NCBI GenBank assembly: GCA_902618385.1 | Contig: CACNAF010000002.1 | Coordinates: forward strand, 30,988 to 94,987 | From: an uncultured Alphaproteobacteria bacterium | Lineage (GTDB): Bacteria > Pseudomonadota > Alphaproteobacteria > HIMB59 > GCA-002718135 | Direction: 5' to 3' | Length of the DNA: 64,000 bases | Shown here: positions 20,242-46,943 of the stretch, piece by piece | Layout of the letters: each line of letters starts with the position of its first letter | Numbering within the stretch: position 1 is the first letter of the stretch | Program-made: the position numbers and the translations under genes | Notes under the pieces: model-generated | What the model was told of the DNA's origin: nothing | Seen by the model: only the letters and a program-made list of their open reading frames with translations | Database searches by the model: none

Positions 20242-21483
20242 GTGTCCGATAACTTAGAAATTAATAAAAGAGAATATCCAAGTAATTTTTCAAAAACTGC
20301 TATTGTGATTTGCCTTGATGGTAGTCAAAAAGAGTATCTCGAAGAAGCATCAAAATCAAATCTTACACCAAACCTTGATAAATTAATTGCAAGTGGTGAA
20401 AACCTACTAGTACACAGCGCTATTCCAAGTTTTACAAATCCAAATAATATTTCGATTGTAACAGGCCAACCAAGTTCTGTTCACGGTATATGCGGGAACT
20501 TCTTTTATACACCCGAGACCGGTGAAGAAGTAATGATGAATGACCCAAAATATATGCGAGCACCAACTATTTTTGAAAAATTTTATAATTCTGGTTCTAA
20601 AATTGCTCTGGTTACTGCAAAAGATAAGCTGAGAACACTTTTAGGAAATGGATTAAGTTTTGATGATGAGAGAGCTATTTGTTTTTCTGCTGAAAAATCT
20701 GATCAAGCAACAAAAGATCTCAATGGTATAGATAATGTAAACGATTGGTTAGGGATGCCAGTGCCAGAAGTATACTCTGAAGAACTTTCTGAATTTGTAA
20801 TGGCTGCAGGTGTAAAGCTTCTTGAAGAGTTCAAACCAAATATCATGTATTTATCGACTACGGATTATATTCAACACAAATATGCGCCAGGAAATGAAAC
20901 AGCAAATAAATTTTATGCAATGTTTGATAAATATATTGGTCTTTTAAATAAGGAGAATGTTTCTATAATTATCACAGCAGATCACGGTATGAAACCAAAA
21001 TCAAAAGAAGATGGTTCACCTAATGCAATATTTTTACAAGATTATTTAGATAAAAAATTTGAACCAAACATGGCTAAAGTTATTCTACCAATTACAGATC
21101 CATATGTTGTGCATCATGGTTCACTTGGTTCTTTTGCAACAATTTATTTAGAAGACAAAAGTAAGATAGATTCAGTTGTAAATGCTATAAAAGAAATAAA
21201 AGATATAGAAGTTGTTTTAACAAAAGACGAAGGATGCTCTACTTATAATTTACCTCCAGATAGAATGGGGGATATTATATGTATGTCTTCAGAATTTATG
21301 ACTATTGGTTCATCAGAAGATAAACACAATCTTTCTGGATTAAATGAACCTTTACGTTCACACGGTGGACTTCATGAAAGAGAAGTGCCATTCATATCAA
21401 ATTTAAAATTACAAAATTTAGATACTAACAAACAATTATATAACTATGATGCATTTTACTATGCAATTAACGGAGCCCTATGA
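20242..21483 (+). CDS. phnA: phosphonoacetate hydrolase
   Basis: Alkaline-phosphatase/NPP superfamily. Nucleophile motif [14 protein letters not shown], plus TADHGM and SHGGLHE. 413 aa with a GTG start. Overlaps the following ALDH by 4 nt, as in characterised phnA-phnY pairs. Confidence 0.82.
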
Positions 21484-22922
21484 TGCACAAAAAAATGATT
21501 AATGAAGCAATGCGTATTGCTGGAGAAAAAGTTACCTCAGATAAAACAATAAATGTTGAGTACCCTTTTACAGGTGAAGTAATCGGAACGGTTCCAGCCG
21601 GTACTGCAGAGCATGCAAGAAAGGCTTTAGATATTGCTGCAAATTACCAACCTAAACTTACAAGATACGAGAGACAAAAAATTCTTCAAACTGCTGCAGA
21701 AGTACTTGTTAAAAGAAAAGAAGAAATTTCTGATATTATTACTTTAGAACTTGGTATCTCAAAACAAGATTCTTTATACGAAGTAGGAAGAGCTTTTGAT
21801 GTCTTTTCATTAACGGCTCAACTTTGTATTCTTGATGATGGAGAAATATTTTCTTGTGATTTAACTCCGCATGGAAAAGCGAGAAAAATATTTACCATAA
21901 GAGAACCTTTAACGGCAATTTCAGCAATCACTCCATTTAATCATCCTTTGAATATGGTAGCGCATAAAATTGCACCTTCAATTGCAACTAATAATTGTAC
22001 TGTATGTAAACAAACAGAATTAACACCCTTAACAGCAATGGTACTTGCTGATGTTTTATATGAAGCAGGTTTACCACCAGAAATGTTTTCAGTTGTAACT
22101 GGATGGCCTCAAGACATTGGATCAGAAATGATCAAAAATCCAAACATTGATCTCATTACTTTTACAGGCAGTGTAGGTGTAGGAAAATTAATTGCTGAAC
22201 AAGCTGGATACAAAAGAACAGTTCTTGAGCTAGGCGGTAATGATCCTTTAATTGTTTTAAACGACTTAGATGGTGATGATCTTAAAAAAGCTGTTGAGCT
22301 AGCTGTTACTGGAGCAACGAAAAACTCTGGTCAACGTTGTACAGCTGTTAAAAGAATACTGGTTCAAGAATCCATTGCAGATCAATTTGTTGAAATGGCT
22401 CTTGAGCGTGCTAAGAAAATTAAATTTGGTGATCCTATGAATATGGAAACAGACTTAGGTACGGTTGTTAATGCTCAAGCTGCAGAACTTTTTGATAAAA
22501 GAGTTTCTATGGCTGAAGAAGACGGTGCAAAAATTTTATATCACCCTGGAAGAAAGGGTGCTTTGTTACCTCCAATAGTTGTAGATCATGTTGATCCTAA
22601 AAGTGAATTAGTTTTAGAAGAAACATTTGGTCCAGTTATCCCAATCATTCGTGTGCCTAATGACGATGAAGCTGTAATGAAAATATCTAATTCAACCGCA
22701 TTTGGATTATCATCTGGTGTATGTACAAATAACTTCATGCGAGCAAAAAAATATATTCAAGGTTTAAATGTTGGAACTGTAAATATTTGGGAGGTTCCAG
22801 GCTATAGAATTGAAATGTCTCCTTTTGGAGGAATTAAAGATTCAGGTCTTGGTTATAAAGAAGGAGTAATTGAAGCAATGAAAAGCTTTACTAATGTAAA
22901 AACTTTCTCGCTACCTTGGTAA
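21480..22922 (+). CDS. phnY: phosphonoacetaldehyde dehydrogenase (NAD-dependent aldehyde dehydrogenase)
   Basis: ALDH motifs ELGGNDP, catalytic Cys in GQRCTAV, and EETFGPV. The call rests on translational coupling to phnA and on phnW nearby. Confidence 0.78.
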
Positions 22923-23058: not shown

Positions 23059-24312
23059 ATGAAAAAATTAATTACAGGATTGGCAGCCGTATTAGCTTTC
23101 GGTTTTTATGGTTCTGTTAATTCAGCTAAGTCTATTGAAATAGAAGTAGCTTATCCTTATTCAGGATTATTCGATGTAACGTTTCAAGCTATTATGCCAG
23201 AGTTTGAAAAAGCGCATCCAGATATTCAAGTTAAATTTAGAGCAACTTATGAAAACTATGAAGATGCAACTGCAACAATTTTTAGAGAGTCTACTTCAGG
23301 TAACTTACCAGATGTAACGATGCAAGGTCTTAACAGACAAGCACCTCTAGTAGATAAAGGTATTGCAAAGTCTTTAGAGCCATTTATTGCAAAAGAAGCA
23401 GCTTTTGAAAAAGATGGTTACCATTCCGCTATGTTAAGTCTTTCAACATTCGGTGGTGAAGTTTATGGATTACCATTTTCTGTATCAACGCCAGTTGGAT
23501 ATTACAACATGGATCTATTAGCTGAAGCAGGTGTAGATAGTATTCCAACTAACTGGGACGAAGTTATTGCAGCATGTAATAAATTGGAAGCAGCAGGTAA
23601 AGGAACTCTATACTTTGGTTGGAACATCACAGGTAACTGGTTCCACCAAGCATTAATGCATACTCAGAACGTTCCAATGGTTAAAGATGGAGCTGTAAAT
23701 ATGGGTGGTGATGCAGGACTTGCAACGTTAGAGCAAATGAAAGCAATCATGAGTGGATGTAATATGCCAAACTATTCAATTGCTGATGGTCAAGCTGCGT
23801 TTAACGCAGGTACTATTGGTATGATGTTCTGGTCTACTTCAAGCTTGGGTTCAGTTAATGCTGCAAAGGCAGACTTTGTTTTAAAAACTGCACCATTCCC
23901 TGGAATGGCTGGAGTAAACAATGGAACACCAGCAAGATTACCAGCAGGTGGAAACGCTGCAATGTTAGTGTCTACATCTGATGATCCAGCAAGAGTTGAT
24001 GCTGCATGGACTTTCTTAAAGTTCATTACATCAGGTATCGGTGCTGCATTAGTTGCTGAAACAACTGGATATGTTCCACCAAATAAAGCAGCGAATGATT
24101 TATTAGGTGACTTCTATAGTCAAAACCCTAATAAACTTACTGCTGTTGAACAACTTCCACTTCTTGCTGATTGGTTTGCGTATCCTGGAGAAAATGGATT
24201 AGCTGTTACACAGGTAATCTATGATTTCACGGAAGAAATTGCTACAGGTGACGCTGATGATATGGCAGATCTTCAAGAAGAAATGATGGAAGAAATAAAC
24301 GATCTTATGTAA
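23059..24312 (+). CDS. family-1 extracellular solute-binding protein, UgpB-like (glycerophosphoryl or organophosphorus ligand inferred)
   Basis: Signal peptide. Colinear with E. coli UgpB as I recall it (HPDIQVKF..YENYED, FSVSTPVGYYNMDLLAEAG, TGYVPPNKAA). It has its own strong SD and terminator. Confidence 0.75.
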   Translation: MKKLITGLAAVLAFGFYGSVNSAKSIEIEVAYPYSGLFDVTFQAIMPEFEKAHPDIQVKFRATYENYEDATATIFRESTSGNLPDVTMQGLNRQAPLVDKGIAKSLEPFIAKEAAFEKDGYHSAMLSLSTFGGEVYGLPFSVSTPVGYYNMDLLAEAGVDSIPTNWDEVIAACNKLEAAGKGTLYFGWNITGNWFHQALMHTQNVPMVKDGAVNMGGDAGLATLEQMKAIMSGCNMPNYSIADGQAAFNAGTIGMMFWSTSSLGSVNAAKADFVLKTAPFPGMAGVNNGTPARLPAGGNAAMLVSTSDDPARVDAAWTFLKFITSGIGAALVAETTGYVPPNKAANDLLGDFYSQNPNKLTAVEQLPLLADWFAYPGENGLAVTQVIYDFTEEIATGDADDMADLQEEMMEEINDLM

Positions 24313-24342
24313 TTTGAGATTATTTATTATTAACTTTTTATT

Positions 24343-24375
24343 ACAGCGGCTTTATAAAAGCCGCTGTTTTATTTT
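24343..24375 (+). terminator. rho-independent terminator or attenuator after the SBP gene
   Basis: ACAGCGGCTTT-ata-AAAGCCGCTGT (11-bp stem) followed by TTTATTTT. Confidence 0.8.
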
Positions 24376-24399
24376 AAATTTAAATGGGAGTAAAAATAG

Positions 24400-25479
24400 A
24401 TGCCTCTTACAACAACTACAATAGGTGCTTATCCAAAACCTAAACAAACACCCATTCAAGATTGGTTTTTAGGGACAAAATCAGAAGAAGAGAGAAAAGC
24501 ATCAAAAGGATTATTATCAAATTGGTCACCTGGCGCATATGAAAAAGCATTAGAGTCTGCAGGTGCGGATGCTGAAAAATTATTTTTAGCAGCAATTAAA
24601 GAAGTTATAACTGATCAAGTGAGTGCGGGTATTGATGTTCCAACAGATGGGGAAGTTAGGCGTGAGAGTTATGTATTATATCAATGTCGATTTTTAAATG
24701 GTGTAAGTTTTAAGGAAGTTACACATAAGTCAGTAAGACAGGGTGCGTTCGAAGCTGACCTTCCAACTATTGTTGCACCAATTTCAAGTAAAGAAATACG
24801 TATGCATTTAGACTGGAAGAGTGCACAACAATTTACAAAAAACCCAGTTAAAATTACGCTACCTGGACCAATGACAATTACAGATTCAATTGCCAACAAT
24901 TACTATGATGACATGAAAAAACTTGGTTTTGATTTAGCATTAGCCCTCAATAAAGAAGTTAAAGCACTTGTAGATGCAGGTTGTCAGTATATTCAAATTG
25001 ATGAACCAGTATTTGCTAGAAAGCCCGATGAAGCTCATTCTTACGGTATGGAAAATTTAGAAAGAATGATGCATGGTATTCCTAAAGAAGTGCAACGCGT
25101 TTGCCATATCTGTTGTGGTTATCCTAACTCATTAGATTCAGAAGGGTATAAAAAGGCTGATCTAGATGCTTATGATAGAATTGCATCACTTGTAGATGAT
25201 TCAACTATTGATGAAGTATCTTTAGAAGATTCACATAGGCATAATGATTTAAATCTTTTAGAAAAATTTACTAAAACAAAAGTAATTTTTGGATTTATTG
25301 ATATTGCAAAAAGTAGAATGGAGTCTGTTGAAGAGGTAAGAGTTCGTATCAAAGATTCACTTGAACATATTGATGAACACCGCTTAATAGCTGCACCAGA
25401 TTGTGGTTTAGGTTTCTTTACACGAGAACAAGCAATTGAGAAAATGACAATTTTAACTAAAGCGGCAAAATCAATTTAA
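24400..25479 (+). CDS. core-MetE-like protein: cobalamin-independent methionine synthase catalytic domain only (Zn-dependent thiol alkyltransferase)
   Basis: 359 aa. TTTIGAYPKP, PTDGEVRRE and YIQIDEPVF match the MetE C-terminal domain. Zn ligands are present: H-x-C in VCHICCGY, E in VSLEDS, C in APDCGLGF. There is no N-terminal folate-tail domain. Confidence 0.8.
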   Translation: MPLTTTTIGAYPKPKQTPIQDWFLGTKSEEERKASKGLLSNWSPGAYEKALESAGADAEKLFLAAIKEVITDQVSAGIDVPTDGEVRRESYVLYQCRFLNGVSFKEVTHKSVRQGAFEADLPTIVAPISSKEIRMHLDWKSAQQFTKNPVKITLPGPMTITDSIANNYYDDMKKLGFDLALALNKEVKALVDAGCQYIQIDEPVFARKPDEAHSYGMENLERMMHGIPKEVQRVCHICCGYPNSLDSEGYKKADLDAYDRIASLVDDSTIDEVSLEDSHRHNDLNLLEKFTKTKVIFGFIDIAKSRMESVEEVRVRIKDSLEHIDEHRLIAAPDCGLGFFTREQAIEKMTILTKAAKSI

Positions 25480-25483
25480 TGTA

Positions 25484-26596
25484 ATGTGGAATTATTTTAA
25501 TCCTGTTGAAATTATCTTTGGAGAAAATAGATTTAAAGAAGTACATGATGCTCTTAAAAATAAGAACTACATCATAATCACTCATCCAGAAGAAATTTTT
25601 AAAAAATATAGCGATGAATTAAAATCTTCTTCAAATCCACCACTATCCATTATGACGGATGTTCAGCCTAATCCAGATTATAAGGATATTTTAGAGCTAC
25701 AAAAAAAATTTTCTTCAATCAATGAATCGGTAGATTATATTTTAGCTATAGGTGGTGGCTCTGTTACAGACACAGCTAAAGCAATTGCTGCATTTAAAGA
25801 TAAACAAGAATATCTGACAGATTTCGTTCGCAATAAGAAAAGTCCAAGAGTCGAAAATCCAATCAAGATTATTGCAATACCTACAACTTCAGGAACATCA
25901 AGTGAGCTTACGTGTTGGGCCACAATTTGGGATAAAGAAAAAAACAATAAATTATCTTTGGCGCATAAATCTCTTTATGCAGAAAAAACAATTATCGATC
26001 CATCTATTATGGTTGATAAGCCTTTAGGCTTGACCATTTCAACTGGTTTAGATGCTCTCTCCCATTCAATGGAAAGTATTTGGAATATTAATGCAAATCC
26101 AGTTTCTGCTTCTCATGCAATACAAGCATCAAAATTAGTATTAGAAAATTTACCACTTCTCACTAAAGATTTAAGAAGTGTTGAATTACGCTCAAACATT
26201 GCATTGGCGTGTGTTCATGCTGGTTTAGCGTTTTCCAATACGAAAACTGCTATTGCGCACAATCTATCATACCCTGTGACACTCAATTACGGTATTCAGC
26301 ATGGTATTGCTTGTTCATTTACTTTACCCATGATTACTAAAAGTATGGTTGGAATTGATAGTGTCGCTGAAGAAAGACTAAAGTTAATTTTTAACGATAA
26401 CCTTGAAAATGCCGCAAATCATCTGAGTGAATTTATGCGTTCTTTAGAGGTTCCTCTTAACTTAAATGAAATAAAAGTTCCTGTTCAAGAATGGAATAAT
26501 ATAGTAGATGATGCGTTTTTAGGGGAACGAGGTAAAAACTTTATTGGCAATAAAGAAGCCTTTATCTCTTCTGCTAAATCAATGGGACTTTATTAG
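25484..26596 (+). CDS. iron-containing (group III) alcohol dehydrogenase; candidate phosphonoacetaldehyde / 2-hydroxyethylphosphonate oxidoreductase
   Basis: GGGSVTDTAKAIA, PTTSGTSSELT, and metal His motifs LSHSMES and IAHNLSYPV...HGIAC. 370 aa. The substrate is inferred only from context. Confidence 0.75.
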   Translation: MWNYFNPVEIIFGENRFKEVHDALKNKNYIIITHPEEIFKKYSDELKSSSNPPLSIMTDVQPNPDYKDILELQKKFSSINESVDYILAIGGGSVTDTAKAIAAFKDKQEYLTDFVRNKKSPRVENPIKIIAIPTTSGTSSELTCWATIWDKEKNNKLSLAHKSLYAEKTIIDPSIMVDKPLGLTISTGLDALSHSMESIWNINANPVSASHAIQASKLVLENLPLLTKDLRSVELRSNIALACVHAGLAFSNTKTAIAHNLSYPVTLNYGIQHGIACSFTLPMITKSMVGIDSVAEERLKLIFNDNLENAANHLSEFMRSLEVPLNLNEIKVPVQEWNNIVDDAFLGERGKNFIGNKEAFISSAKSMGLY

Positions 26597-26598
26597 TA

Positions 26599-27705
26599 AT
26601 GAAAAAAAATTTCAGGTTTTATGATAACAGACAAAAATACTTGCTATTTGTCACAACAACAAATGAAAAAAATCAAATTGCTGATGCTATACGCCCTCAC
26701 GTAAATAAAATTAAACCTCAAAAACCTGGCATAAAAATATTTGATGCTGGTATGGGTGATGGTTCCTTACTTATGAATGTTATGCGTCAGTGCCACGAGG
26801 CTGAGCCTAACGTACCTTTATTAGTTTGCACAAAAGAAATAAGCATAGAAGATGTAAGATTAGGTTTAGAAAAGTTACCCGATAGGTTTGTTGAGCATAA
26901 GAATACCGTTTTTGTCATTTCAAATCTACACTACGCGGAAGCCGCAAACCTAAAATCAAAAAATGAAGTTAAACAGAAAAAAATTAATTGGAATATTATT
27001 AAATTAAAAGGAGATACCTCTCTTGAATTTGCCCAACAATTAAGAGAACAAAATGAATTTCTAGAAAAAAAATGGAATATAGAAATTAATAAAAAATCAG
27101 GTAACCATACTTATAAAGAGCCTTCAGTCATGGTTATCTACCGCGAAGATCAAGAATTTAATGTTAATGAATTAATACCTACCAAAAAAAAATCAGATAA
27201 TAAATTTGATCTTATTATTGCTTCACAGCCTTATCGTTCAAGAATTTCAGCAGAAAAGAAATCAAAATACGTCATCGAACCAATGATTCGAGCGTTAAAA
27301 TCAAAAGGGAAATTATTAACTATTCATGCTTCAGGAAAAGATCCTGCTAATGAAATAATTCGTAAAATTTGGCCAAAAGAGAACCCATTTCCTTCTCTTG
27401 GAAATAGTATCATTTCTTATCTTAAGAAAAATTTAGATAAAGATCTATTAAGTAGTTTATCGTTTGGAGAAAAAAGAATTATTAAATGTAAATTGAGAGC
27501 TCTACCAACAGAAATCAGTGGAGGTATAGCGACATCATTAGTTTTTTCTGCTTGGAATGCGTCCATATATGTCAATCAAATGGATGATGATCAAGTAATG
27601 AAGGTAGAAAAAACAAGAAATTATGAAAAAGTAGTCCAGAAAATAGTTTCAAAAAATAAAGGCCTTTATTTTAACAATGAAATATTTGTAATCGAAAAAA
27701 AATAA
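26599..27705 (+). CDS. class I SAM-dependent methyltransferase-like protein with a large internal insertion, function unknown
   Basis: Motif I IKIFDAGMGDGSLL, acidic post-I residue in CTKEIS. After about 120 aa come motif II FDLIIASQPY and motif III LKSKGKLLTI. 368 aa. Confidence 0.55.
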   Translation: MKKNFRFYDNRQKYLLFVTTTNEKNQIADAIRPHVNKIKPQKPGIKIFDAGMGDGSLLMNVMRQCHEAEPNVPLLVCTKEISIEDVRLGLEKLPDRFVEHKNTVFVISNLHYAEAANLKSKNEVKQKKINWNIIKLKGDTSLEFAQQLREQNEFLEKKWNIEINKKSGNHTYKEPSVMVIYREDQEFNVNELIPTKKKSDNKFDLIIASQPYRSRISAEKKSKYVIEPMIRALKSKGKLLTIHASGKDPANEIIRKIWPKENPFPSLGNSIISYLKKNLDKDLLSSLSFGEKRIIKCKLRALPTEISGGIATSLVFSAWNASIYVNQMDDDQVMKVEKTRNYEKVVQKIVSKNKGLYFNNEIFVIEKK

Positions 27706-27709
27706 TTTT

Positions 27710-28498
27710 TTATTTAAACCAATTAACTTCTGTTTTTAAAAAATCCTCTGTATGAATAATTAATGCGTCAGATCGAATTATTGCAACATTATAATTTGTA
27801 TCTGTATTTGCCGTTCCTAAACGATATTCATTTGAAAAGTTAGGTATTAGAGGAGACCAAGTACTTCTTGGGGAGGAAAAAGTAATACCACAATAAGAGC
27901 CAGAACTTGTAATGTGTTGATGACCAAAAAAAATATGTTTTATTATCTTATTATTTTTCGTTAAAATTTGTTGAAACTCTTTTTTTTGTTGTAATCCTAT
28001 TCCATCACTTTCCTCTTTTACTAATGCCAGTGGATTATGATGCATAAAGATGTACGTATCCGTATTAGTCTTACTTAAAATATTATTTAACCATTCTTGC
28101 CTCTCTTCACAATAATGTCCTTGGTGAGTGTTAATCAGATTAGTATCTATAAAAATTAAACGTTTATTATCTATATCCTTAAAGTATTGAATAAATCCAT
28201 TTGGATCGGTTTCAATATTAGGAAAGTTTATTTTAAATTCATCTCTGTTATCATGATTACCTATAATTAGTTGAGGATTTAAATTCTTCGGCAGACCTGC
28301 TTCATCAATTATTTTTAAAAATAACTGATAAGAATCTTTATCACCTAAGTCTGTAATATCACCTGTGATGGCAAATAAATCTGCATCACCATGATTATTT
28401 TTTATATGAGTTAATGCTTTTTTAAATTTACTGACAGGATCTATGCCATGAATCTTATCTATATAAATATGAGGGTCTGAAAGGTGAATAATTTTCAT
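27710..28498 (-). CDS. metallophosphoesterase, GpdQ/CpdA-like phosphodiesterase
   Basis: All calcineurin-like motifs are present: HLSDPH, TGDITDLG, GNHDNR, FMHHNP, GHQH. Colinear with Enterobacter GpdQ as I recall it. 262 aa. Confidence 0.8.
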   Translation of the reverse strand: MKIIHLSDPHIYIDKIHGIDPVSKFKKALTHIKNNHGDADLFAITGDITDLGDKDSYQLFLKIIDEAGLPKNLNPQLIIGNHDNRDEFKINFPNIETDPNGFIQYFKDIDNKRLIFIDTNLINTHQGHYCEERQEWLNNILSKTNTDTYIFMHHNPLALVKEESDGIGLQQKKEFQQILTKNNKIIKHIFFGHQHITSSGSYCGITFSSPRSTWSPLIPNFSNEYRLGTANTDTNYNVAIIRSDALIIHTEDFLKTEVNWFK

Positions 28499-28518
28499 TA
28501 TTAAATATAAATTTATAA

Positions 28519-29151
28519 TTAAATCGCAGTTTTAAAATAAATATACTTATTAAATTCTTCTTTTAAGTCGATGCTAACTCTTGCATGTACTTTACCTTGT
28601 TTTCCTTGAAACGATTGTTTTTCTGTAACTGGAAACACCCCTTCATGCCAAATATTTGGATGAATATACAAACCTTTTGATCCGTCACAATAAAATGCTT
28701 TAAAATGTTCTGGTTCAATGTCGTCTGTAGGTAAGGCTAAAGGACAAATAAATGGTTTATTTTCTGTAGGAAAAAAAAGCTGACCTCCATCAGGATGATA
28801 ATTTGCATGCCATAAAAAAATTTTTGTTGGATCTGAATATTTATCTTTTTGTAATTCTTGATCAGGATTATTGGCATAACCCAGTATATATTTTCCATCT
28901 ACTTCATAATCGCTCTTATGTTGGACAGCATTATTTTGTCCATAAAGCACGTCACCTTGCCACCAGGTATCAAAAGAACCTTCGGTAGTTCCACCTTCAT
29001 TACCAGTTCCCTCTTCTATGTCACGCCATCCTTGTTTTGGCCAAGTAACAATTTCAATATCACTATTTTCAAAACTATCGATTAAATACCCGTATCCTTT
29101 AAGATTTTCATTTGTTGCTTTAACTAAAGGTATTTCAATTTCTTTTGTCAT
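28519..29151 (-). CDS. ureidoglycolate-lyase (AllA)-like beta-barrel protein, function unknown
   Basis: Colinear with E. coli AllA as I recall it: LKGYGYLID vs FSAYGDVIE, ANYHPDGGQLFFP vs ERHPLGTQAFIP, GLYIHPNIWHEGVF vs GVNYHRNVWHHPLF. It carries about 50 extra residues. Confidence 0.6.
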   Translation of the reverse strand: MTKEIEIPLVKATNENLKGYGYLIDSFENSDIEIVTWPKQGWRDIEEGTGNEGGTTEGSFDTWWQGDVLYGQNNAVQHKSDYEVDGKYILGYANNPDQELQKDKYSDPTKIFLWHANYHPDGGQLFFPTENKPFICPLALPTDDIEPEHFKAFYCDGSKGLYIHPNIWHEGVFPVTEKQSFQGKQGKVHARVSIDLKEEFNKYIYFKTAI

Positions 29152-29158
29152 TTTTTTG

Positions 29159-30256
29159 TTAGTTTAATGTTAATCCCAACTCAGTAACAACTTCTTTTAC
29201 AGCTTTTATTGTATCCATCATGTCTTGTTCATTTAAATTACCAATACACCCAATTCTAAAAGTTTCTGCCACTGTTAGTTTTCCTGGATAAATTAAAAAA
29301 TCTTTTTCACTAAGAGCATTATAAAATTTATCAAAGTTAAATTTAGGATCATTAGGATGTTTAAAAGTAATAATAATTGGTGCTTGTAAATTATCAGGAA
29401 GTAGTTGCTCAAATCCCAACTCTTTCATTCCATTACAAATAATTTCACAATTTTTTTTATATCTTTTACCTCTTCCCTCTACACCGCCTTGTTCTTTATG
29501 TTCCTCAATCGCTTGGTTGAATGCAGCCAATACGTGTGTTGGAGGTGTAAATCGCCATTGTTTATTTTTTTCCATTGCTTGCCATTGATCATACAAGTCT
29601 AGACTTAGTGAGTGACTATTGCCTTTTGCATTTTGAATAACTTCATTTTTAACAAGAATGAAACCAACACCTGGCACACCTTCTAAGCATTTGTTTGATG
29701 AAGCGGCTACAGCATCAAAAGTAATTGTTTTAGAACTTAAGGGTAATGCACCAAAGGCACTCATTGCATCGATGAATAACGATAAGTTTTTCCCTTCAAC
29801 CAATTTTGCAATCTCTTCAATAGGATTTAAAATACCCGATGTTGTTTCACAATATACAGCAAAGACGTGTGTTAAGTTGTTGCTATCAATTAACTCTTCA
29901 ATTTTATTGATGTCATGTACTTCATGTTCAGCAACTTCATATTCAATAAAATCTCTCCCTAAATAAGTGCACATTTTTTTCATTCTTTGTCCGTAAGCAC
30001 CATTGATCAGAATCAGAATTTTAGAATCTTTTTGAGTAAGAGAGCTCACCATTGACTCTACAGCAAAAGTTCCACTTCCCTGCATTGGAACACATTGATA
30101 TTTATCTTCACCGTCTATTAATTTAACAAGGGAATCTCTAATTGATGCATTGAGATCAATAAATTTTGTATCTCTCGAACCCCAATCATGAAGCATAGCC
30201 TCTTTTGTTGACATCGATGTCGTGAGAGGACCAGGGGTTAATAATTTTTTATCCAT
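29159..30256 (-). CDS. phnW: 2-aminoethylphosphonate--pyruvate transaminase
   Basis: Class V aminotransferase. LLTPGPLTTS N-terminus and HDWGSRDTKF, as in characterised PhnW. 365 aa. Confidence 0.85.
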   Translation of the reverse strand: MDKKLLTPGPLTTSMSTKEAMLHDWGSRDTKFIDLNASIRDSLVKLIDGEDKYQCVPMQGSGTFAVESMVSSLTQKDSKILILINGAYGQRMKKMCTYLGRDFIEYEVAEHEVHDINKIEELIDSNNLTHVFAVYCETTSGILNPIEEIAKLVEGKNLSLFIDAMSAFGALPLSSKTITFDAVAASSNKCLEGVPGVGFILVKNEVIQNAKGNSHSLSLDLYDQWQAMEKNKQWRFTPPTHVLAAFNQAIEEHKEQGGVEGRGKRYKKNCEIICNGMKELGFEQLLPDNLQAPIIITFKHPNDPKFNFDKFYNALSEKDFLIYPGKLTVAETFRIGCIGNLNEQDMMDTIKAVKEVVTELGLTLN

Positions 30257-30344
30257 TAAATATTTACTTAATAAATATTATTATAAATTTGATCAATCTT
30301 ATTAAAGTTGGAATTGAATTTATTTTCTAATAAGTTAATTATAA

Positions 30345-30920
30345 ATGAGAATGGAAGAAAATATCGTAGATTATCTCTTAGATCTTTTGAAAACAAAAGG
30401 TGCTGATATTCAATATGGTAATGAGGATGTGACTCAGCTTGAGCACGCACTCCAATGTGCTGAACTTGCTGAAAAACATAAATTACCAGGACCAACAATT
30501 GCTGCAGCATTACTGCATGATGTTGGCCACCTTATTTATGAGGACGGCGATCCCATTCATGAAGGGAAAGATGGTCATCATGAAAACTTAGGTGCTGATT
30601 TTTTAAAAAAATATTTTGGTGAAGATGTTATTTTACCAATTAGAGCACATGTTGATTCAAAAAGATATTTATCAAGTGTTGAAGAAGGTTATTATGATAG
30701 TCTATCAGAAGCATCGAAACTTTCGTTAAAAGTTCAAGGCGGTCCTTTCACAAAAGAAGAAGCAGATGCGTTTATCAGCAAACCTTTTATGGATGAGGCA
30801 GTAGAGCTTAGAAGATTTGATGATCTAGCAAAAATTCTAGATAAAAAAACTCCCGATGTTGAACATTTTCGCCCCTATTTAGAAGAAGCAAGACAGTCTT
30901 TTTTAGCTAAACAAGCGTAA
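30345..30920 (+). CDS. phnZ: HD-domain diiron oxygenase PhnZ family (C-P cleaving; 1-hydroxy-2-aminoethylphosphonate dioxygenase-like)
   Basis: QLEHALQCA, AALLHDVGH, HHENLGADFL, AHVDSKRYL and LSEASKLSLKVQGGPF are colinear with characterised PhnZ as I recall it. 191 aa. Confidence 0.8.
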   Translation: MRMEENIVDYLLDLLKTKGADIQYGNEDVTQLEHALQCAELAEKHKLPGPTIAAALLHDVGHLIYEDGDPIHEGKDGHHENLGADFLKKYFGEDVILPIRAHVDSKRYLSSVEEGYYDSLSEASKLSLKVQGGPFTKEEADAFISKPFMDEAVELRRFDDLAKILDKKTPDVEHFRPYLEEARQSFLAKQA

Positions 30921-31445
30921 ATGCAATTTAGCAATTATGATTTTATTGACTCTAAGTCATTTGCAGGAAAAATTATATTAACTTCTTTTCCAGGTCTTAA
31001 CTCTAATGGTTTATTTGAAGAAACAATTTTAGCAAACGAATTAGAAATGTTTAAAAATAATAATTGTAGTTCTATTACTTCTTTTGTTGAAGATAGCGAA
31101 TTTGAAAAATTGTGTGATAAAACTTTGTTTGTCAAAAGTATTTATAAACATAAATTACATTGGTACCATTTACCCATTTATGACATGGGAGCACCAGATA
31201 AAGATTTTAAATATAAATGGGAAACAACAAAAGTTTTATTAAAGAACGAATTGATAGATGGTAAAAATATAGTCTTACATTGTCGTGGAGGAAAAGGAAG
31301 AGCTGGCACTATAGCTGCTATTTTACTTGTTGAATTTAATTATGAAAAACAAGAAGCTATTGATCTTGTACGATCAAGAAGAAAAGGAGCTATTGAATCT
31401 AAAATACAGAAAGATTTTATTTTTTCTTATCGAGCAGTTAATTAA
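30921..31445 (+). CDS. cysteine-dependent (dual-specificity/CDKN3-like) phosphatase
   Basis: P-loop HCRGGKGRAGT (HCX5R-S/T). 174 aa. The ATG directly abuts the phnZ stop. Confidence 0.75.
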   Translation: MQFSNYDFIDSKSFAGKIILTSFPGLNSNGLFEETILANELEMFKNNNCSSITSFVEDSEFEKLCDKTLFVKSIYKHKLHWYHLPIYDMGAPDKDFKYKWETTKVLLKNELIDGKNIVLHCRGGKGRAGTIAAILLVEFNYEKQEAIDLVRSRRKGAIESKIQKDFIFSYRAVN

Positions 31446-32494
31446 AAAGAGACCGTTAAATTAAAAATATTTTCTAGAATAAATAAAACAATTAAAGAAA
31501 TTAAAGCTGCAATTATAGGTAGCGTCATCCAACCCAAAGAAATTCTACCCGCAATTGACCATTGAACCTCTTTTCCTCCTTTTAAAAGACCAATTCCAAT
31601 TACGCCGCCAACAACAGCTTGGGAACTTGATACTGGTACCAAAGGTATAGAGGGAAGATTTATAGATTGTAAAAAAGCACTTATGCCCTGGGATGCAAAT
31701 AAAAATAAAACAATAGAATGCGATATAACAACAATAAATGCTGCCACTGGTGTCATTTTTAAGAGATCATTACCCACGGTAAACATAACTCTTTTCGAGT
31801 AGGTAAAAACACCAACAGCTATGGCTAAACCACCCAGCAGAAATAGTTGTTCTTTTGAGGAAAAGACAAATAAATTTCCAATAGTAACATCAGTAAACGG
31901 TGATATAGGTACGAAGACACCCATTACATTGGCAATATTGTTTGCACCTAAACTATAAGCACCAAAAGCACCGGCTAAAAGTAAAGCTGTTCTTGTATAG
32001 GCATCAAGTCTGAGAATATGTAACTTTCTATTGAGTATAACTCTTTTTGTAAAAGTAAATAAACCCATTGCAATAACTCCTGCAATAATAGGACAGAGTA
32101 TCCATGTTCCTAAAATAGTAATTAAAACTTGAAGATTAGTTGAAGATCCCGTGTATAAATTCCAACCAACAATTGCTCCAACAATCGCTTGCGTTGTAGA
32201 AACAGGCAAGCCAACTTTGGTCATTAAATAAACGGATATGCCTGCAGCCACACATGCTGCAAAGGCACCAGGTAATGCATTAATAGCACCTAACTTACCT
32301 AAAGTTTCTGTTGTTCCTGCTCCACTAATAATTGCACCTAGAATAACAAAGACACTACAAATTATTGCTGCACTTGTGAAACTAACCATTCGCGTCCCAA
32401 CAGCAGTTCCAAAAACATTTGCTGCATCATTGGCGCCAAGTGACCAACCTAAAAAAAGACCACCAAATAAAAAAATCAGAATTGTAATTTCCAT
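31442..32494 (-). CDS. inorganic phosphate transporter, PiT (PHO4) family
   Basis: Duplicated GANDAANVFG and GANNIANVMG signature. About 10 TM segments. 350 aa. Confidence 0.88.
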   Translation of the reverse strand: MEITILIFLFGGLFLGWSLGANDAANVFGTAVGTRMVSFTSAAIICSVFVILGAIISGAGTTETLGKLGAINALPGAFAACVAAGISVYLMTKVGLPVSTTQAIVGAIVGWNLYTGSSTNLQVLITILGTWILCPIIAGVIAMGLFTFTKRVILNRKLHILRLDAYTRTALLLAGAFGAYSLGANNIANVMGVFVPISPFTDVTIGNLFVFSSKEQLFLLGGLAIAVGVFTYSKRVMFTVGNDLLKMTPVAAFIVVISHSIVLFLFASQGISAFLQSINLPSIPLVPVSSSQAVVGGVIGIGLLKGGKEVQWSIAGRISLGWMTLPIIAALISLIVLFILENIFNLTVSF

Positions 32495-33286: not shown

Positions 33287-33514
33287 ATGACAGATTTATC
33301 AATTAATAGAATTAAGTGGTTTAGCACCGCGTTAATTTTATCAGGAATATTATTAACCAATTTAAATGCGTATCCAATTAACATAATTATTCACGGTACA
33401 GGTGCTGTTGGTTGGTCAATTGTTGGTTATATGACAAAAGATAGAGCTCTGCTCACAAACTTTGGTTTACAACTCCCACTATTTATTTTTGGATATATTT
33501 ATTTGCTGACATGA
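33287..33514 (+). CDS. small 3-TM membrane protein, unknown function
   Basis: 75 aa with three hydrophobic helices. AGGAG lies 6 nt upstream. Its stop overlaps the arsC start (ATGA). Confidence 0.55.
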   Translation: MTDLSINRIKWFSTALILSGILLTNLNAYPINIIIHGTGAVGWSIVGYMTKDRALLTNFGLQLPLFIFGYIYLLT

Positions 33515-33930
33515 AAAATAAAAATATTCTTTTTATGTGTGTTGCTAATTCAGCAAGAAGTCAAATGGCTGAAGGAATTGCAAAAAAATTATATCCTAAT
33601 TGTATTATTCAAAGTGCAGGATCAGTGCCCAAAGAAGTTAATCCCAATGCTATCGAGGTTATGGGTGAAATCGATATTGATATATCAAAACATTATTCAA
33701 AAGATTTTGAAAGTTTAGACAAAAAATTTAGAGATGAATTAAATACCGTTTTTACGCTTTGTAAAGAAGAGGTATGTCCAGTTTTAAATTCCAAAGCTCA
33801 GATATTTTCAATACCATTTGATGATCCAGCATCAGATCATTTTAGTTCAAACCAATTAAATAAATTTAGAGAAGTAAGAGACTCAATTTTTATTAAATTG
33901 AAAGAACTAAAAAATTTATTTGAAAACTAA
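33511..33930 (+). CDS. arsC: arsenate reductase, LMW-PTP (thioredoxin-coupled) type
   Basis: CVANSARS (CX5R) P-loop, TLCKEEVCP Cys pair, and FDDPA. Confidence 0.82.
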   Translation: MKNKNILFMCVANSARSQMAEGIAKKLYPNCIIQSAGSVPKEVNPNAIEVMGEIDIDISKHYSKDFESLDKKFRDELNTVFTLCKEEVCPVLNSKAQIFSIPFDDPASDHFSSNQLNKFREVRDSIFIKLKELKNLFEN

Positions 33931-36727: not shown

Positions 36728-37633
36728 ATGGCTAAAAAGAAAAATAAAAATCCCATAACAGTTATTGATCTAGGCTCTAATACATTTAGACTAGTTATAT
36801 ACGCGCAAGCTATTCATCCTTTTCCAATACTTTATCAAAAAAGAGAATTCTTAAAATTAGGTGAAAGTATTAAAATAGGTAAACTCCCATCGATAAAAAT
36901 AAAAGAAGCTATAAAATGCTTAGAAGAATATATTAAGATTGCAAAAGATTATGAGTCCTCAGATATTCATATAATTGCAACGGCCGCAATTCGTGAAACA
37001 ATAAATGGAAAAGAAATTATTGAACCCTTCAAGAAAAAAAAGTCAGTTAGAGTAGAAGTGCTCTCACCAAAAAATGAGGCTAAATGCGGATCCCTAGGTG
37101 TAATTAGTTCAATAAAAAATCCAATTGGTTTAGTTGCTGACTTGGGAGGTGGAAGTTTAGAACTTAGTACCATAAAAAATGAAAACATACTTGAAACTAA
37201 AAGTTTAAAAATTGGCATCTTAAGAAGTGAATCTGATATGTACAAAACTACTAAAATTAAATTTGATAATTTTTTATTTTCTAAATTTAAAAACCAATCT
37301 CTTAAATTTTCTAAAAACGTAGGAAATATTTATGTTATTGGAGGCATGTGGCGCAATCTTGCAAAACTTCATTTGCACCTAAATGGAATCAAGAAAAATA
37401 AATTACATGGGTACATGATACCATTTTCAGAGTTAGAAATATTTTATCACAAATTATACTCTATGGAAAAAAAACAAATTCAAAAATTGAATGTTGTCCA
37501 ACCCAATCGATTAGATAAATTAAAATTATCTACATATATTTTATTTAGCCTTGCTTCATTTTATAACATTAAAAATATTATTTTTGTAAGATATGGAATC
37601 CGTGAAGGCTACTTGTACGATATGTTGAACTAA
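36728..37633 (+). CDS. ppx: Ppx/GppA-family phosphatase, short form (actin-like domains only)
   Basis: VIDLGSNTFRLVIY and DLGGGSLEL. At 301 aa it lacks the C-terminal domains of the long E. coli-type PPX. Confidence 0.8.
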   Translation: MAKKKNKNPITVIDLGSNTFRLVIYAQAIHPFPILYQKREFLKLGESIKIGKLPSIKIKEAIKCLEEYIKIAKDYESSDIHIIATAAIRETINGKEIIEPFKKKKSVRVEVLSPKNEAKCGSLGVISSIKNPIGLVADLGGGSLELSTIKNENILETKSLKIGILRSESDMYKTTKIKFDNFLFSKFKNQSLKFSKNVGNIYVIGGMWRNLAKLHLHLNGIKKNKLHGYMIPFSELEIFYHKLYSMEKKQIQKLNVVQPNRLDKLKLSTYILFSLASFYNIKNIIFVRYGIREGYLYDMLN

Positions 37634-38286
37634 TTTTTAAAAAACAATCTAACAATAATTGTAGCAATAAGAGCACCAATAATCTGAGCTAAAATAAAAC
37701 CTAGAACACTTGATGGACTTATTCCACTAAAACTATCTGTAAACATTCTTCCTATAGTTACTGCTGGATTTGCAAAACTTGTTGATGAAGTAAACCAATA
37801 TCCTGCGGTAATAAATAGAGCTACACCAATAGCTATTCTTTCCTTGTTTACCTCTTTTAATATAAAAATAGTTAATAATAATCCAACAGTTGCAATTATT
37901 TCTGAAAAGAATTTAAATACACCAACTCTTTCATTGAGTGACCATTCAATTATAGGATATTCAAAATACCAATTTGCAGTTAAACAACCAAATATACCAG
38001 CAATAATCTGAGTAAAAATAAAAATTATTCCGTAATTAATAGGAATATTTTTTTGGATAATATCACTTAATACAACAGCAGGATTAAAGTACGCTCCTGA
38101 GATATTAATAAACATAGAAATAATTACATATAAAATGGCACCTGTTGCGATAGTGTTTCCTAGTAATATTATACCAAGGTCATTTGACATTAATTCTCCC
38201 ATAATTCCACTACCTACAACTGTTAGTACAAGAAAATATGTCCCAATAAATTCTGCTAGTATTTTTTGTCTTAAAGAATATGTCAC
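37630..38286 (-). CDS. MIP-family channel (aquaporin/aquaglyceroporin)
   Basis: Two NPA boxes (FNPAV, ANPAV), 6 TM segments, 218 aa. Lies 20 nt downstream of the glycosyltransferase on the same strand. Confidence 0.85.
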   Translation of the reverse strand: MTYSLRQKILAEFIGTYFLVLTVVGSGIMGELMSNDLGIILLGNTIATGAILYVIISMFINISGAYFNPAVVLSDIIQKNIPINYGIIFIFTQIIAGIFGCLTANWYFEYPIIEWSLNERVGVFKFFSEIIATVGLLLTIFILKEVNKERIAIGVALFITAGYWFTSSTSFANPAVTIGRMFTDSFSGISPSSVLGFILAQIIGALIATIIVRLFFKN

Positions 38287-39308: not shown

Positions 39309-40110
39309 CCTCTTTTATTTTTCGTCTTTCTTCAAAAGAAATTAATTTTAATTTTTCTCTTTCTTCGGGCCAATTAAGAATAGATAAATTTCCAATTTCA
39401 TCTTCAACGAGTGCTGTGCAACTTTCAATCCAGTCACCATCATTACAATAGAGAACACCATTTAATTCCTTTATTTCAGGTCTATGTATATGCCCACACA
39501 CAACGACATCGGCATTTTCTCTTCTTGCTCTATCAGATACAGCAAACTCAAAATTACTAATAAAGTTTGTTGCATGCTTTGTTTTCTTTTTTAAATATTG
39601 AGACAGTGACCAGTAAGATAAACCCATCTTTCGTCGAATAAAATTAAATACATTATTTAACTTTAGTAAATATTCATAAAGTGCTGATCCCACTTTGGCT
39701 AACCATCTTGCATTAATGATCACAGCATCAAACTCATCTCCGTGTGTAATCAGTACTTTCCTTCCATCAGCTAATTGATGTGTATCTTCATTTTTGATTG
39801 AAATTTCTCCAAAGGAAAAATTTGTAAAATCTTTTAATACTTCATCATGATTTCCTGGGATAAGCACTACCTTAGTTCCATTTTTCGCTTTTTTTAAAAC
39901 TTTTTGAACCACATCATTATGTTCTTGAGGCCAATACATTTTCTTACGCATGCGCCATCCATCTACAATGTCGCCTACTAAAAATAAATATTCTGAATCT
40001 GTTTCTTCTAAGAATTCTAAAAGCATTTTGCTTTTACAACCACTGGTTCCTAGATGGGTATCCGAAATCCAAATTGTGCGGTAAAATTTTTTATTACTTT
40101 CAAATTTCAT
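39298..40110 (-). CDS. plcP: LpxH-like metallophosphoesterase; likely phospholipase C PlcP (lipid remodelling)
   Basis: WISDTHLG, VGDIVDGW, PGNHDE, THGDEFD, GHIHRP. 270 aa. Paired with the GT4 gene and next to the Pho regulon. Confidence 0.72.
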   Translation of the reverse strand: MKFESNKKFYRTIWISDTHLGTSGCKSKMLLEFLEETDSEYLFLVGDIVDGWRMRKKMYWPQEHNDVVQKVLKKAKNGTKVVLIPGNHDEVLKDFTNFSFGEISIKNEDTHQLADGRKVLITHGDEFDAVIINARWLAKVGSALYEYLLKLNNVFNFIRRKMGLSYWSLSQYLKKKTKHATNFISNFEFAVSDRARRENADVVVCGHIHRPEIKELNGVLYCNDGDWIESCTALVEDEIGNLSILNWPEEREKLKLISFEERRKIKEDAA

Positions 40111-40177
40111 TAATTAAAGATTTGTTCTTATACATAAAAGTATCATTTTATAATACAATTTATTATTATATGTGTGT

Positions 40178-40195
40178 ATTGTATAAAAATAACAG
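40178..40195 (-). promoter_or_regulatory. candidate Pho box plus perfect -10 for plcP
   Basis: The minus strand reads CTGTTAT-TTTT-ATACAAT, then 7 nt, then TATAAT (40165-40170). The site is 68 nt upstream of the plcP ATG. Confidence 0.4.
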
Positions 40196-40196
40196 T

Positions 40197-40697
40197 ATGA
40201 CGCAGAAAATTTGGTTTAAAAAAAAATCACCCCTTCACGGTTCTGGATTATTTGCAAAAACTAATATTAAAAAAGGCCAGAAAATAATCCAATATATTGG
40301 TGATAAAGTTACTAAAAGAGAGGGTGACAAAAGAGCAGATAAACAAATCCGTAAAGCAAAAAAAGATAAAAATAATGGCATGGTCTATGTTTTTGAACTA
40401 AACAAGCGATACGACATTGACGGTGATGTTGATTATAATTTTGCAAAATTTATTAATCACTCATGTAATCCTAATTGTGAAGTAGACATCATAGATAATG
40501 AAATTTGGATTTCTTCCATTAAACGAATAAAAAAAGGTGCCGAACTTTTTTATAACTATGGTTATCCTTTTGATACAGATTTTGTGGATCACATTTGTAA
40601 GTGTGGTTCTAGAAATTGTGTTGGTTATATTTTAAGTGATAATGATTGGCCTAAACTAAAAAAATATGAAAAAAAAACTAAGACTAAGTCTAAGTAA
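40197..40697 (+). CDS. SET-domain protein (putative protein-lysine methyltransferase)
   Basis: GSGLFA, NHSCNPNC, ELFYNYGY, and post-SET CKCGSRNC. Start set at MTQKIWF (40197). The track start at 40074 would overlap plcP. Confidence 0.85.
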   Translation: MTQKIWFKKKSPLHGSGLFAKTNIKKGQKIIQYIGDKVTKREGDKRADKQIRKAKKDKNNGMVYVFELNKRYDIDGDVDYNFAKFINHSCNPNCEVDIIDNEIWISSIKRIKKGAELFYNYGYPFDTDFVDHICKCGSRNCVGYILSDNDWPKLKKYEKKTKTKSK

Positions 40698-41718
40698 GAT
40701 ACCTTCGATTATTATTGCAATTGATACAAATAAGGAAATAATTTTTTACAATAATGCAGCTAAACAAAAATTTTTATTTATCGATGAAGGAAGAGATCTC
40801 AATAATATTATTAGATCAACAGAGTTAAATACTTTTATTGATAAAGCCTTTAGGGAGAAAGAAGATTTTAAGTTTGAATTCACCCCATCTAATTTTAGTG
40901 ATATGTATTTTATTGCTGACTTAATATTTGTTGAAAAAGATTATGAAGAATTATTAATATCACTAAATGATCAAAGTCTTCTTAAAAACTACGAACAAAT
41001 GCGAACAGATTTTGTGGCTAATGTAAGCCATGAATTGAGAACTCCTCTTTCCTCAATTCTAGGCTATGTTGAAACAATTAAAAATTCACTCAATGAAGAT
41101 AAGACCAATGACAAAACGGTTGGTAAATTTTTAGACACAATGGAAGATCAGGCTTGGCGTATGACTAGACTAGTCGAAGATTTATTATTACTAAGTAAAT
41201 ATGAGACTGAAGATAAACCTATAGAATTTCAAGAAGCGAATATAAGGCAATTAATTGAAGGCGTAGTAGATAATTTACAAAACAAGTTAATGGCCAAAAA
41301 AATTGAAGTTCAAATCAAGGATGATTTTGATAAGTCTACAATATCAGCAAACAAAGATGCTTTGATCCAAGTTTTTTTAAATCTAACTGATAATGCAATT
41401 AAATATAGCAGAGAAAATTCTACTATTGAAATTGAGCTTGAGAGTGTAATTGATGACAATACCACCTTTTGCCAAATAAGTTTTATAGATAAGGGAGAAG
41501 GCATATCGAAAGAGCATTTAACTAGACTTACTGAAAGATTTTATAGAGTAGATAAAAATAGATCTCGAAATCAAGGCGGTACGGGTTTGGGTTTATCTAT
41601 TGTTAAACATATAACTAATAGGCATAATGGTAAATTATCGATAAAAAGCAAGGTAGATAAGGGTTCAACATTTACTATTTCTTTACCAGTATTTCAGCAA
41701 ACTGTAATAAATACTTAA
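40666..41718 (+). CDS. phoR: phosphate-regulon sensor histidine kinase PhoR, no transmembrane segment
   Basis: An N-terminal PAS-like region comes first. Then H-box SHELRTPL, N-box DNAIKYS, G1 DKGEGI, G2 GGTGLGLSIV. It overlaps the SET gene by 32 nt. Confidence 0.85.
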   Translation: MKKKLRLSLSKIPSIIIAIDTNKEIIFYNNAAKQKFLFIDEGRDLNNIIRSTELNTFIDKAFREKEDFKFEFTPSNFSDMYFIADLIFVEKDYEELLISLNDQSLLKNYEQMRTDFVANVSHELRTPLSSILGYVETIKNSLNEDKTNDKTVGKFLDTMEDQAWRMTRLVEDLLLLSKYETEDKPIEFQEANIRQLIEGVVDNLQNKLMAKKIEVQIKDDFDKSTISANKDALIQVFLNLTDNAIKYSRENSTIEIELESVIDDNTTFCQISFIDKGEGISKEHLTRLTERFYRVDKNRSRNQGGTGLGLSIVKHITNRHNGKLSIKSKVDKGSTFTISLPVFQQTVINT

Positions 41719-41749
41719 TATATATTCTGTAAGGACAACCTTATTTTAA

Positions 41750-42757: not shown

Positions 42758-42779
42758 AAATCTTAAATTTTTATAAAAT

Positions 42780-42805: not shown

Positions 42806-42820
42806 AATACTAAGTTATAA

Positions 42821-45467: not shown

Positions 45468-45470
45468 AAC

Positions 45471-46942: not shown

Positions 46943-46943
46943 A

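Follow-up and report, generated by a model that had tools for sequence, protein, structure and literature searches.

The stretch of DNA analysed here (contig CACNAF010000002.1 of assembly GCA_902618385.1, positions 30,988 to 94,987; 64 kb with a G+C content of about 30%, hereinafter the window) carries, at positions 30345-30920 of the forward strand, a gene for a 191-amino-acid HD-domain oxygenase of the PhnZ/TmpB type. We propose, with moderate confidence, that this protein is a stand-alone diiron oxygenase of the PhnZ family that provides an accessory branch of phosphonate scavenging in Pelagibacterales (SAR11), cleaving an imported 1-hydroxy-aminophosphonate, most plausibly (R)-1-hydroxy-2-aminoethylphosphonate (R-HAEP), to yield glycine plus phosphate. 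It belongs to a phosphate-starvation island of SAR11 and has a complete PhnW-PhnY-PhnA pathway, of the hydrolytic type, next to it; the hydroxylase that accompanies the characterized enzymes of this family is missing from its neighbourhood.

The HD-domain oxygenase

The protein matches the Pfam HD domain, and its top NCBIfam match is TIGR03276, the family of phosphonate degradation HD-domain oxygenases, with 201.4 bits compared to a curated cutoff of 214.6. This family leads the next one by 45 bits, and residues 6-180 of the protein align with positions 2-176 of the 179 in the model. The HD homologues from the metagenomic clusters of cupin, HD and PhyH genes described below also fall just under this cutoff, with 208 and 182 bits. 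The closest solved structure by sequence is TmpB (6NPA; E 2e-32, 116 bits), to which the protein aligns nearly end to end; PhnZ (4MLM) is matched as well, over residues 8-182 (E 6e-29). The diiron ligands H34, H58-D59, H79, H102 and D159 are all aligned in order to those of both structures, and H62 is likewise conserved; the six-residue diiron motif H...HD...H...H...D, as defined in a review (PMC8177086), is complete. An earlier reading of the window from the sequence alone (the sequence-only reading) had described the protein as PhnZ-like, with the His/Asp ligand blocks in order, and both the family match and the sequence alignments to the solved structures bear this out.

The substrate loop, YxxE, is represented by Y24-G-N-E27 and is kept in the SAR11 homologues. 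Its equivalents are Y24/E27 in PhnZ and Y30/E33 in TmpB, where this transient loop controls the access of O2 and the glutamate forms a hydrogen bond with the substrate's amino group (PMC8177086). The closest relatives of the window are single-cell genomes of Pelagibacterales, and 80 species-representative genomes of this group encode an HD protein that is 73-100% identical to the one studied here. The median dN/dS of the gene, 0.037 over 72 SAR11 pairs, indicates strong purifying selection. Judging from these comparisons, this conserved gene under selection encodes a PhnZ-family protein in which the diiron site is intact and the amine-binding loop is present; its iron cofactor is presumably mixed-valent.

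Absence of a hydroxylase partner near the gene

The adjacent or co-operonic 2-oxoglutarate/Fe(II) hydroxylase of the canonical two-enzyme pathways (PhnY*/PhnZ, TmpA/TmpB and GmPhnY*/PhnZ1) was found neither in the window nor in the 80 SAR11 loci. A Pfam scan that took in essentially all non-nested open reading frames of the window of at least 90 amino acids, plus one of 75, revealed no PhyH, TauD, 2OG-FeII or BBOX-type protein among them. A tblastn search of the window and the 80 SAR11 loci (1.6 Mb) with three PhnY*-like PhyH proteins, all from metagenomic contigs in which a related HD gene adjoins theirs and one of them nearest to methylphosphonate hydroxylase in NCBIfam (236 bits), yielded zero matches at E<=1. 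None of the variant SAR11 islands in which the upstream genes have been exchanged has a 2-oxoglutarate oxygenase, and none of the neighbours in the window, namely a cupin, a 368-amino-acid protein and a phosphodiesterase, looks like a hydroxylase. We conclude that the absence of the hydroxylase is real locally, and the statement of the sequence-only reading that no PhyH/TauD/BBOX-like gene occurs in the 64 kb stands.

Relationship to characterized enzymes and published precedent

In a neighbor-joining tree, the SAR11 HD proteins share one branch with homologues from carbon-phosphorus (C-P) lyase operons of Variovorax and Nostoc and with HD genes linked to PhnW or to amine oxidases; the other branch holds PhnZ (4MLM), TmpB and the PhyH-linked HD homologues. 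Within the plasmid collection, no annotated homologues are closer than the Variovorax and Nostoc proteins, with an identity of about 48%. Their genes are part of the C-P lyase operons of plasmids of Variovorax sp. SRS16, where the gene follows phnCDE (locus L082, 6989-7537), and of Nostoc sp. ATCC 53789, where it lies between phnM and phnJ (locus L083, 6989-7549). These proteins are sister to the SAR11 clade and, like the SAR11 gene, theirs have no PhnY* gene by them in their C-P lyase loci. They differ from the SAR11 gene in being located within phnCDE/phnGHIJKLM operons rather than beside phnW or phnA, and in the lack of a cupin gene nearby.

The characterized enzymes have an identity to the SAR11 protein of 38-39%. 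PhnZ from the marine fosmid HF130_AEPn_1 (4MLM/4MLN/4N6W), an R-HAEP dioxygenase, resembles the SAR11 protein in its length of about 190 amino acids, the HD fold, the ligand set, the Y24xxE27 loop, H62, marine origin and a role in phosphate scavenging. However, the two are only about 38% identical and belong to different branches of the tree, and whereas the gene of the characterized PhnZ adjoins that of the 2-oxoglutarate dioxygenase PhnY*, after which the enzyme acts, the SAR11 gene has no such neighbour and is located beside phnW. TmpB from Leisingera caerulea (6NPA), an (R)-1-hydroxy-2-trimethylaminoethylphosphonate oxygenase, shares the ligands and the YxxE loop, but the SAR11 protein reaches 157 bits with the TmpB equivalog model compared to a cutoff of 300, and a gene for TmpA (TauD/BBOX-type) was not found in the SAR11 window. 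The loop glutamate is kept in all partner-less homologues on the tree, as opposed to the HD homologue of locus L098, which is clustered with the methylphosphonate-hydroxylase-like PhyH and has lysine in this position. This difference is a weak indication that the substrate of the SAR11 enzyme carries an amino group.

A PhnZ homologue without PhnY* is not a new observation. Zangelmi et al. (Biochemistry, 2021; PMC8154272, Table 1) surveyed 19,425 complete genomes and found phnZ homologues in 24 of 75 phnWAY clusters (32%) and in 15 of 1186 phnWX clusters, whereas phnY*Z clusters numbered only 7. They showed that PhnW-PhnX does not process R-HAEP properly, and proposed that the PhnZ homologues handle it directly. 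The window falls under their definition of a phnWAY(+phnZ) cluster, with PhnW, PhnY and PhnA each above the NCBIfam cutoff in addition to the PhnZ homologue, and the gene set of these clusters, which includes neither PhnY* nor PbfA, is the same as that of the SAR11 island. The survey was limited to complete cultured genomes, and the SAR11 island and its interleaved genes for a cupin, a methyltransferase-fold protein, a phosphodiesterase and a phosphatase are not described there.

Since 2010-2012, it has been known that phnZ far exceeds phnY* in the ocean, with phnZ in 9.4% and phnY* in 1.6% of genomes in the Global Ocean Sampling (GOS) data and 10% compared to 3% in the work of Martinez et al. 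(PMC3266647). Of the marine phnZ sequences, 45% come from Pelagibacterales (PMC9381506), and in 2012 phnZ was reported from the SAR11 isolate HTCC7211 (PMC3448164). Murphy et al. noted that phnZ splits into subclades, of which only the original one is specific for 2-aminoethylphosphonate (AEP) (PMC8316502). The partner-less PhnZ in phnWAY clusters is thus a common pattern, already published together with an explanation, and SAR11 is its main marine carrier. The sequence-only reading was correct in that no canonical hydroxylase lies nearby but overstated the oddity, given that partner-less genes are the rule (PMC8154272, PMC3266647); it also missed the PhnW-PhnY-PhnA pathway in the same window. 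The orphan pattern is not conceptually new, and the association with the cupin is the sole new item.

Proposed function and alternative explanations

The stretch from phnA to the HD gene comprises ten consecutive genes; the HD gene is divergent from phnW and has phnY and phnA within 10 kb. The hydrolytic pathway consists of PhnW, 2-aminoethylphosphonate-pyruvate transaminase (29159-30256, reverse strand; NF010006, 510 bits, cutoff 296; TIGR02326, 458 bits, cutoff 401), PhnY, phosphonoacetaldehyde dehydrogenase (21480-22922, forward strand; TIGR03250, 797 bits, cutoff 636), and PhnA, phosphonoacetate hydrolase (20242-21483, forward strand; TIGR02335, 470 bits, cutoff 408). The same island includes phoR, pstSCAB, phoU and phoB (40666-47667), ppk, ppx and a PHO4 transporter gene with a gene for a PhoU-like protein.

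Under the model that we favour, the main route would begin with PhnW converting AEP to phosphonoacetaldehyde; a PhpC-type dehydrogenase would channel 2-hydroxyethylphosphonate (HEP) into the same aldehyde, PhnY would oxidize it to phosphonoacetate, and PhnA would then free acetate and phosphate. Phosphonates that are already 1-hydroxylated would not be handled by PhnW, PhnY and PhnA, and the HD enzyme would take them directly, binding the substrate at Fe1 through the 1-hydroxyl and phosphonate groups, activating O2 at Fe2 and cleaving the C-P bond oxidatively to yield a carboxylic acid and phosphate. The likeliest substrate would be imported R-HAEP, converted to glycine and phosphate, which would make a hydroxylase within the cell unnecessary. 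Among the possibilities raised by the sequence-only reading, an environmental supply of the 1-hydroxy-phosphonate fits the evidence best, and this explanation is already present in the literature (PMC8154272).

Several observations weigh against this model. The score of the HD protein with TIGR03276 is slightly under the curated cutoff, and the cutoffs of the equivalog models for TmpB (NF049941) and for the PhnZ1 hydroxymethylphosphonate dioxygenase (NF052439), 300 in each case, are clearly missed, with 156.7 and 152.9 bits, respectively. The probable identity of the substrate is drawn from the loop motif and the gene context. A stand-alone scheme assigns no role to the cupin, although it is tightly linked, or to the phosphatase, although it is translationally coupled. 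The neighbor-joining tree is a rough one, built from 13 sequences without support values, and the search for the hydroxylase covered only the window and 10 kb on either side of the HD gene in the 80 genomes.

The canonical pathway could instead be split, such that a PhnY*/TmpA-type 2-oxoglutarate dioxygenase encoded elsewhere in the genome hydroxylates AEP, methylphosphonate or trimethyl-AEP and the HD enzyme cleaves the product. We consider this quite unlikely. Nothing direct speaks for it; the analysis covered about 64 kb of the genome itself and 10 kb on either side of the gene in its 80 relatives, and PhyH-family genes do adjoin related HD genes in other lineages. However, wherever such a PhyH partner was found in the loci examined, it lay adjacent to the HD gene or within about 2 kb of it (L127, L152, L098, L108 and L111). 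Furthermore, the members of the clade to which the SAR11 enzyme belongs have no PhyH neighbours in any of the contexts seen, phnZ outnumbers phnY* about sixfold in ocean metagenomes (PMC3266647), and a second route for AEP would be redundant beside PhnW, PhnY and PhnA. A different substrate is unlikely too, be it hydroxymethylphosphonate, which would give formate, an N-methylated 1-hydroxy-AEP or 1,2-dihydroxyethylphosphonate from marine organic matter, and the same holds for some other HD-type activity. The nearly equal scores with the TmpB and PhnZ1 models (157 and 153 bits), both under the cutoff, the low identity to PhnZ and TmpB, the location of the nearest cultured homologues in operons of C-P lyase, which handles alkylphosphonates, and the presence of phosphodiesterases and an HEP dehydrogenase among the neighbours are all compatible with such a substrate. 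On the other hand, the YxxE loop retains the amine-binding glutamate, the recurring neighbours are of the AEP type (PhnW, a DAO-type amine oxidase and an AEP-like ABC transporter), and the diiron motif, with its six ligands complete, speaks against a plain phosphohydrolase (PMC8177086).

Yet another alternative, and a very unlikely one in our estimate, is that the cupin encoded next to phnW (28519-29151) acts on an aminophosphonate derivative, perhaps through lyase chemistry on a C-N bond or a hemiaminal, through isomerization or through an unusual oxygenation, and passes the product to the HD enzyme or to PhnW. The constant adjacency to phnW in SAR11, the phosphonate-type neighbours of 16 of the 75 metagenomic cupin loci (16 of 52 in the subclade of the SAR11 cupin, compared to 0 of 23 in the second subclade) and the invariance of H118 and H168, with H188 nearly invariant, speak for this alternative. 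The fold, however, is that of AllA, a lyase, rather than that of a 2-oxoglutarate or HEPD-type oxygenase; the cupin gene lies beside both PhyH and HD genes in L127, L152 and L098, so that it does not replace a hydroxylase; the SAR11 variants L077, L078 and L160 keep the HD gene without the cupin; and a Paraburkholderia homologue with 52% identity, along with most other loci, has no phosphonate context. The suggestion of the sequence-only reading that a non-canonical neighbour might supply the hydroxylated substrate accordingly gained no support, either from the cupin or from the 368-amino-acid neighbour, which has the fold of an S-adenosylmethionine (SAM) methyltransferase.

The direct use of pre-hydroxylated phosphonates would have implications beyond this locus. 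Because SAR11 accounts for about half of marine phnZ (PMC9381506), surveys that score phnZ as '2-AEP oxidation' may count an enzyme that is unable to start from AEP. If the model is correct, compounds such as R-HAEP are a real currency of the phosphorus cycle in the ocean, and phnZ-based estimates of AEP turnover need re-reading. SAR11 requires exogenous glycine or serine and, under this model, would gain glycine as well as phosphate from the reaction. The practical gain of the analysis is a defined, abundant PhnZ clade and a candidate new partner protein, the cupin.

The AllA-like cupin

The cupin gene (28519-29151, reverse strand; 210 amino acids) starts 7 nucleotides downstream of phnW, in the same operon, and always adjoins phnW in the SAR11 loci in which it occurs. 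Pfam Ureidogly_lyase matches the protein in its C-terminal half only, the sequence match being confined to the C-terminal 60 residues, and with the NCBIfam models of ureidoglycolate lyase it scores at most 34 bits compared to cutoffs of 160-315. The AlphaFold2 (AF2) model (pLDDT 83.6) has its best Foldseek matches in AllA (2BDR and 1XSQ, TM 0.66-0.69; TM 0.62-0.69 on the target for the AllA structures together, probability 1.0), with sugar epimerases and JmjC oxygenases far behind. W36, H118, G159, W167 and H168 are invariant among the homologues. The cupin shares with the AllA ureidoglycolate lyases (1XSQ, 1YQC, 2BDR) the fold and the motif histidines in HP(D/L)G..Q and WH, but at an identity of only 14-16%; the cupin is longer by about 50 residues at and near the N-terminus, and its neighbours are phosphonate genes, not allantoin genes.

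The cupin family, with 714 representative clusters at E<=1e-3, is of moderately large size. A scan of metagenome contigs with an alignment of 7 cupin sequences retrieved the 75 unrelated loci referred to above, which encode cupins 35-52% identical to the SAR11 protein. The phosphonate-type genes beside the cupin in 16 of them code for PhnZ-like HD proteins, PhnY*-like PhyH proteins, a Rieske oxygenase with a DAO protein, or PhnW/PhnA, and their arrangements are diverse. There are cupin-HD-PhyH operons (L127, L152), a cupin-HD pair (L155), an HD-cupin-PhnW arrangement (L106), a Rieske oxygenase-DAO-HD-cupin cluster (L136) and three loci with this set in which no HD gene is visible (L113, L117, L119). 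Other loci contain a TonB receptor, a phosphodiesterase, the cupin, a HAD protein and PhyH, followed at some distance by HD (L098, L108, L111; in part L116), PhyH-cupin pairs on short contigs (L109, L115, L147), or the cupin with an ABC transporter, PhnW and PhnA (L144). In the remaining loci the neighbours are unrelated, such as PQQ beta-propellers, DUF4954 and SUI1. We found no literature that pairs ureidoglycolate-lyase-like or cupin proteins with PhnZ or with phosphonate catabolism.

The possibility that the cupin is the hidden hydroxylase was rejected as the main reading, given the AllA fold, the coexistence with PhyH and HD elsewhere, which shows that it is not a substitute for PhnY*, and the fact that some SAR11 islands with the HD gene have no cupin. 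Nevertheless, repeated recruitment beside enzymes that act first on aminophosphonates suggests an accessory role. It is possible, although rather doubtful, that the cupin is a so far unrecognized enzyme that recurs as an accessory in the catabolism of aminophosphonates, much as the Pbf enzymes do, and that it was recruited independently in SAR11 and several unrelated lineages and might convert or release a modified aminophosphonate for PhnW or a PhnZ-type oxygenase. By analogy with the chemistry of AllA, one could speculate that it is a C-N or hemiaminal lyase. If this reading of the cupin is true, the 'orphan' PhnZ enzymes of the ocean would not act alone.

Organization and variation of the island

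About 75 of the 80 SAR11 genomes share the arrangement in which the HD gene is embedded. The core order is phnA-phnY, then, at some distance, the gene for the 368-amino-acid protein, followed by phosphodiesterase-cupin-phnW on the reverse strand, HD-phosphatase on the forward strand and PHO4-PhoU_div. Among SAR11 genomes, this region is also hypervariable: HD keeps its place by the phosphatase and PHO4 genes, and the genes upstream of it are exchanged. In L075 (8495-15452) and L077 (3753-9956), a TIGR03329-type FAD amine oxidase (DAO, 585 bits) and an AEP-type ABC transporter are encoded beside HD. An EamA gene accompanies these two in some of the variant islands. In L160-L162, a choline-kinase/APH-like gene upstream of HD replaces phnW and the cupin gene (L160, 9556-15453).

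The gene directly downstream of HD (30921-31445, forward strand) encodes a dual-specificity/protein tyrosine phosphatase (PTP)-type phosphatase of 174 amino acids (Pfam PTP-SAK/DSPc), and its start codon begins on the base right after the HD stop codon. The phosphatase gene is found downstream of HD in nearly all SAR11 loci, mostly directly adjacent to it; in four loci (L069, L074, L075 and L078), the two are separated by about 5 kb, which in L075 is occupied by the EamA gene and the AEP-type ABC transporter. On the other side, an AT-rich divergent intergenic region of 88 bp (30257-30344), with presumed promoters, separates HD from phnW. A Pho-box scan (TGTCA-N6-TGTCA, at most 2 mismatches) gave 38 matches compared to 68 expected and was uninformative, and a scan of 27600-31600 for sigma-70 promoters and terminators was at chance level. 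Because these scans did not rise above chance, we infer Pho regulation of the HD gene only from its location in the island.

The last gene of the phnW-cupin operon (27710-28498, reverse strand) encodes a metallophosphoesterase of 262 amino acids (Pfam Metallophos) that resembles the GpdQ/Rv0805/SpdA phosphodiesterases, with 174 bits for the SpdA model, under the cutoff, and 2ZO9/2DXL/3D03 and Rv0805 as the top sequence matches in the PDB. The conserved 368-amino-acid protein (26599-27705, forward strand) has no NCBIfam match, only a weak match to Methyltransf_31 and no PDB sequence match. Its AF2 model (pLDDT 77) has a predicted class-I SAM-methyltransferase fold, with histamine N-methyltransferase as the top Foldseek match, followed by other SAM methyltransferases; the protein has about 5100 homologues, of which the two with a named source belong to Pelagibacter or other Alphaproteobacteria. 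This protein was considered as a candidate oxygenase and rejected on account of the fold and the lack of a PDB sequence match.

Further upstream on the forward strand lies a cassette (23059-26596) of UgpB-like, MetE-like and PhpC genes that is optional, being present in most but not all SAR11 islands. The PhpC-type iron-containing alcohol dehydrogenase (25484-26596; TIGR03405, 362 bits, cutoff 424) is a probable HEP dehydrogenase; enzymes of this class in degradative clusters oxidize HEP to phosphonoacetaldehyde (PMC13576164, 2026). The MetE-like protein (24400-25479) has the catalytic domain of cobalamin-independent methionine synthase (Pfam Meth_synt_2) and is under all NCBIfam cutoffs. The 2026 paper accounts for the neighbouring dehydrogenase but not for the presence of this gene of the Zn alkyltransferase family within a phosphonate cluster. 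The UgpB-like periplasmic solute-binding protein is encoded at 23059-24312 (Pfam and NCBIfam matches).

Divergent from phnA, on the reverse strand, are the genes of a Ugp-like ABC transporter (17090-20065; an ATPase and two permeases by Pfam), for which UgpC, UgpA and UgpE are the best NCBIfam matches, all under the cutoff, and PhnT2 reaches 305 bits. This transporter and the phosphodiesterase flank the phosphonate genes, an arrangement that may reflect the import of glycerophospho(no)diesters or phosphonate esters, followed by their de-esterification. The Pho island also includes a gene of the ArsC/low-molecular-weight (LMW) phosphatase family (33511-33930, forward strand) and a gene for a MIP-family channel (37630-38286, reverse strand). 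Next to phoR there is a SET-domain gene (40074-40697, forward strand), which occurs in the related locus L160 as well.

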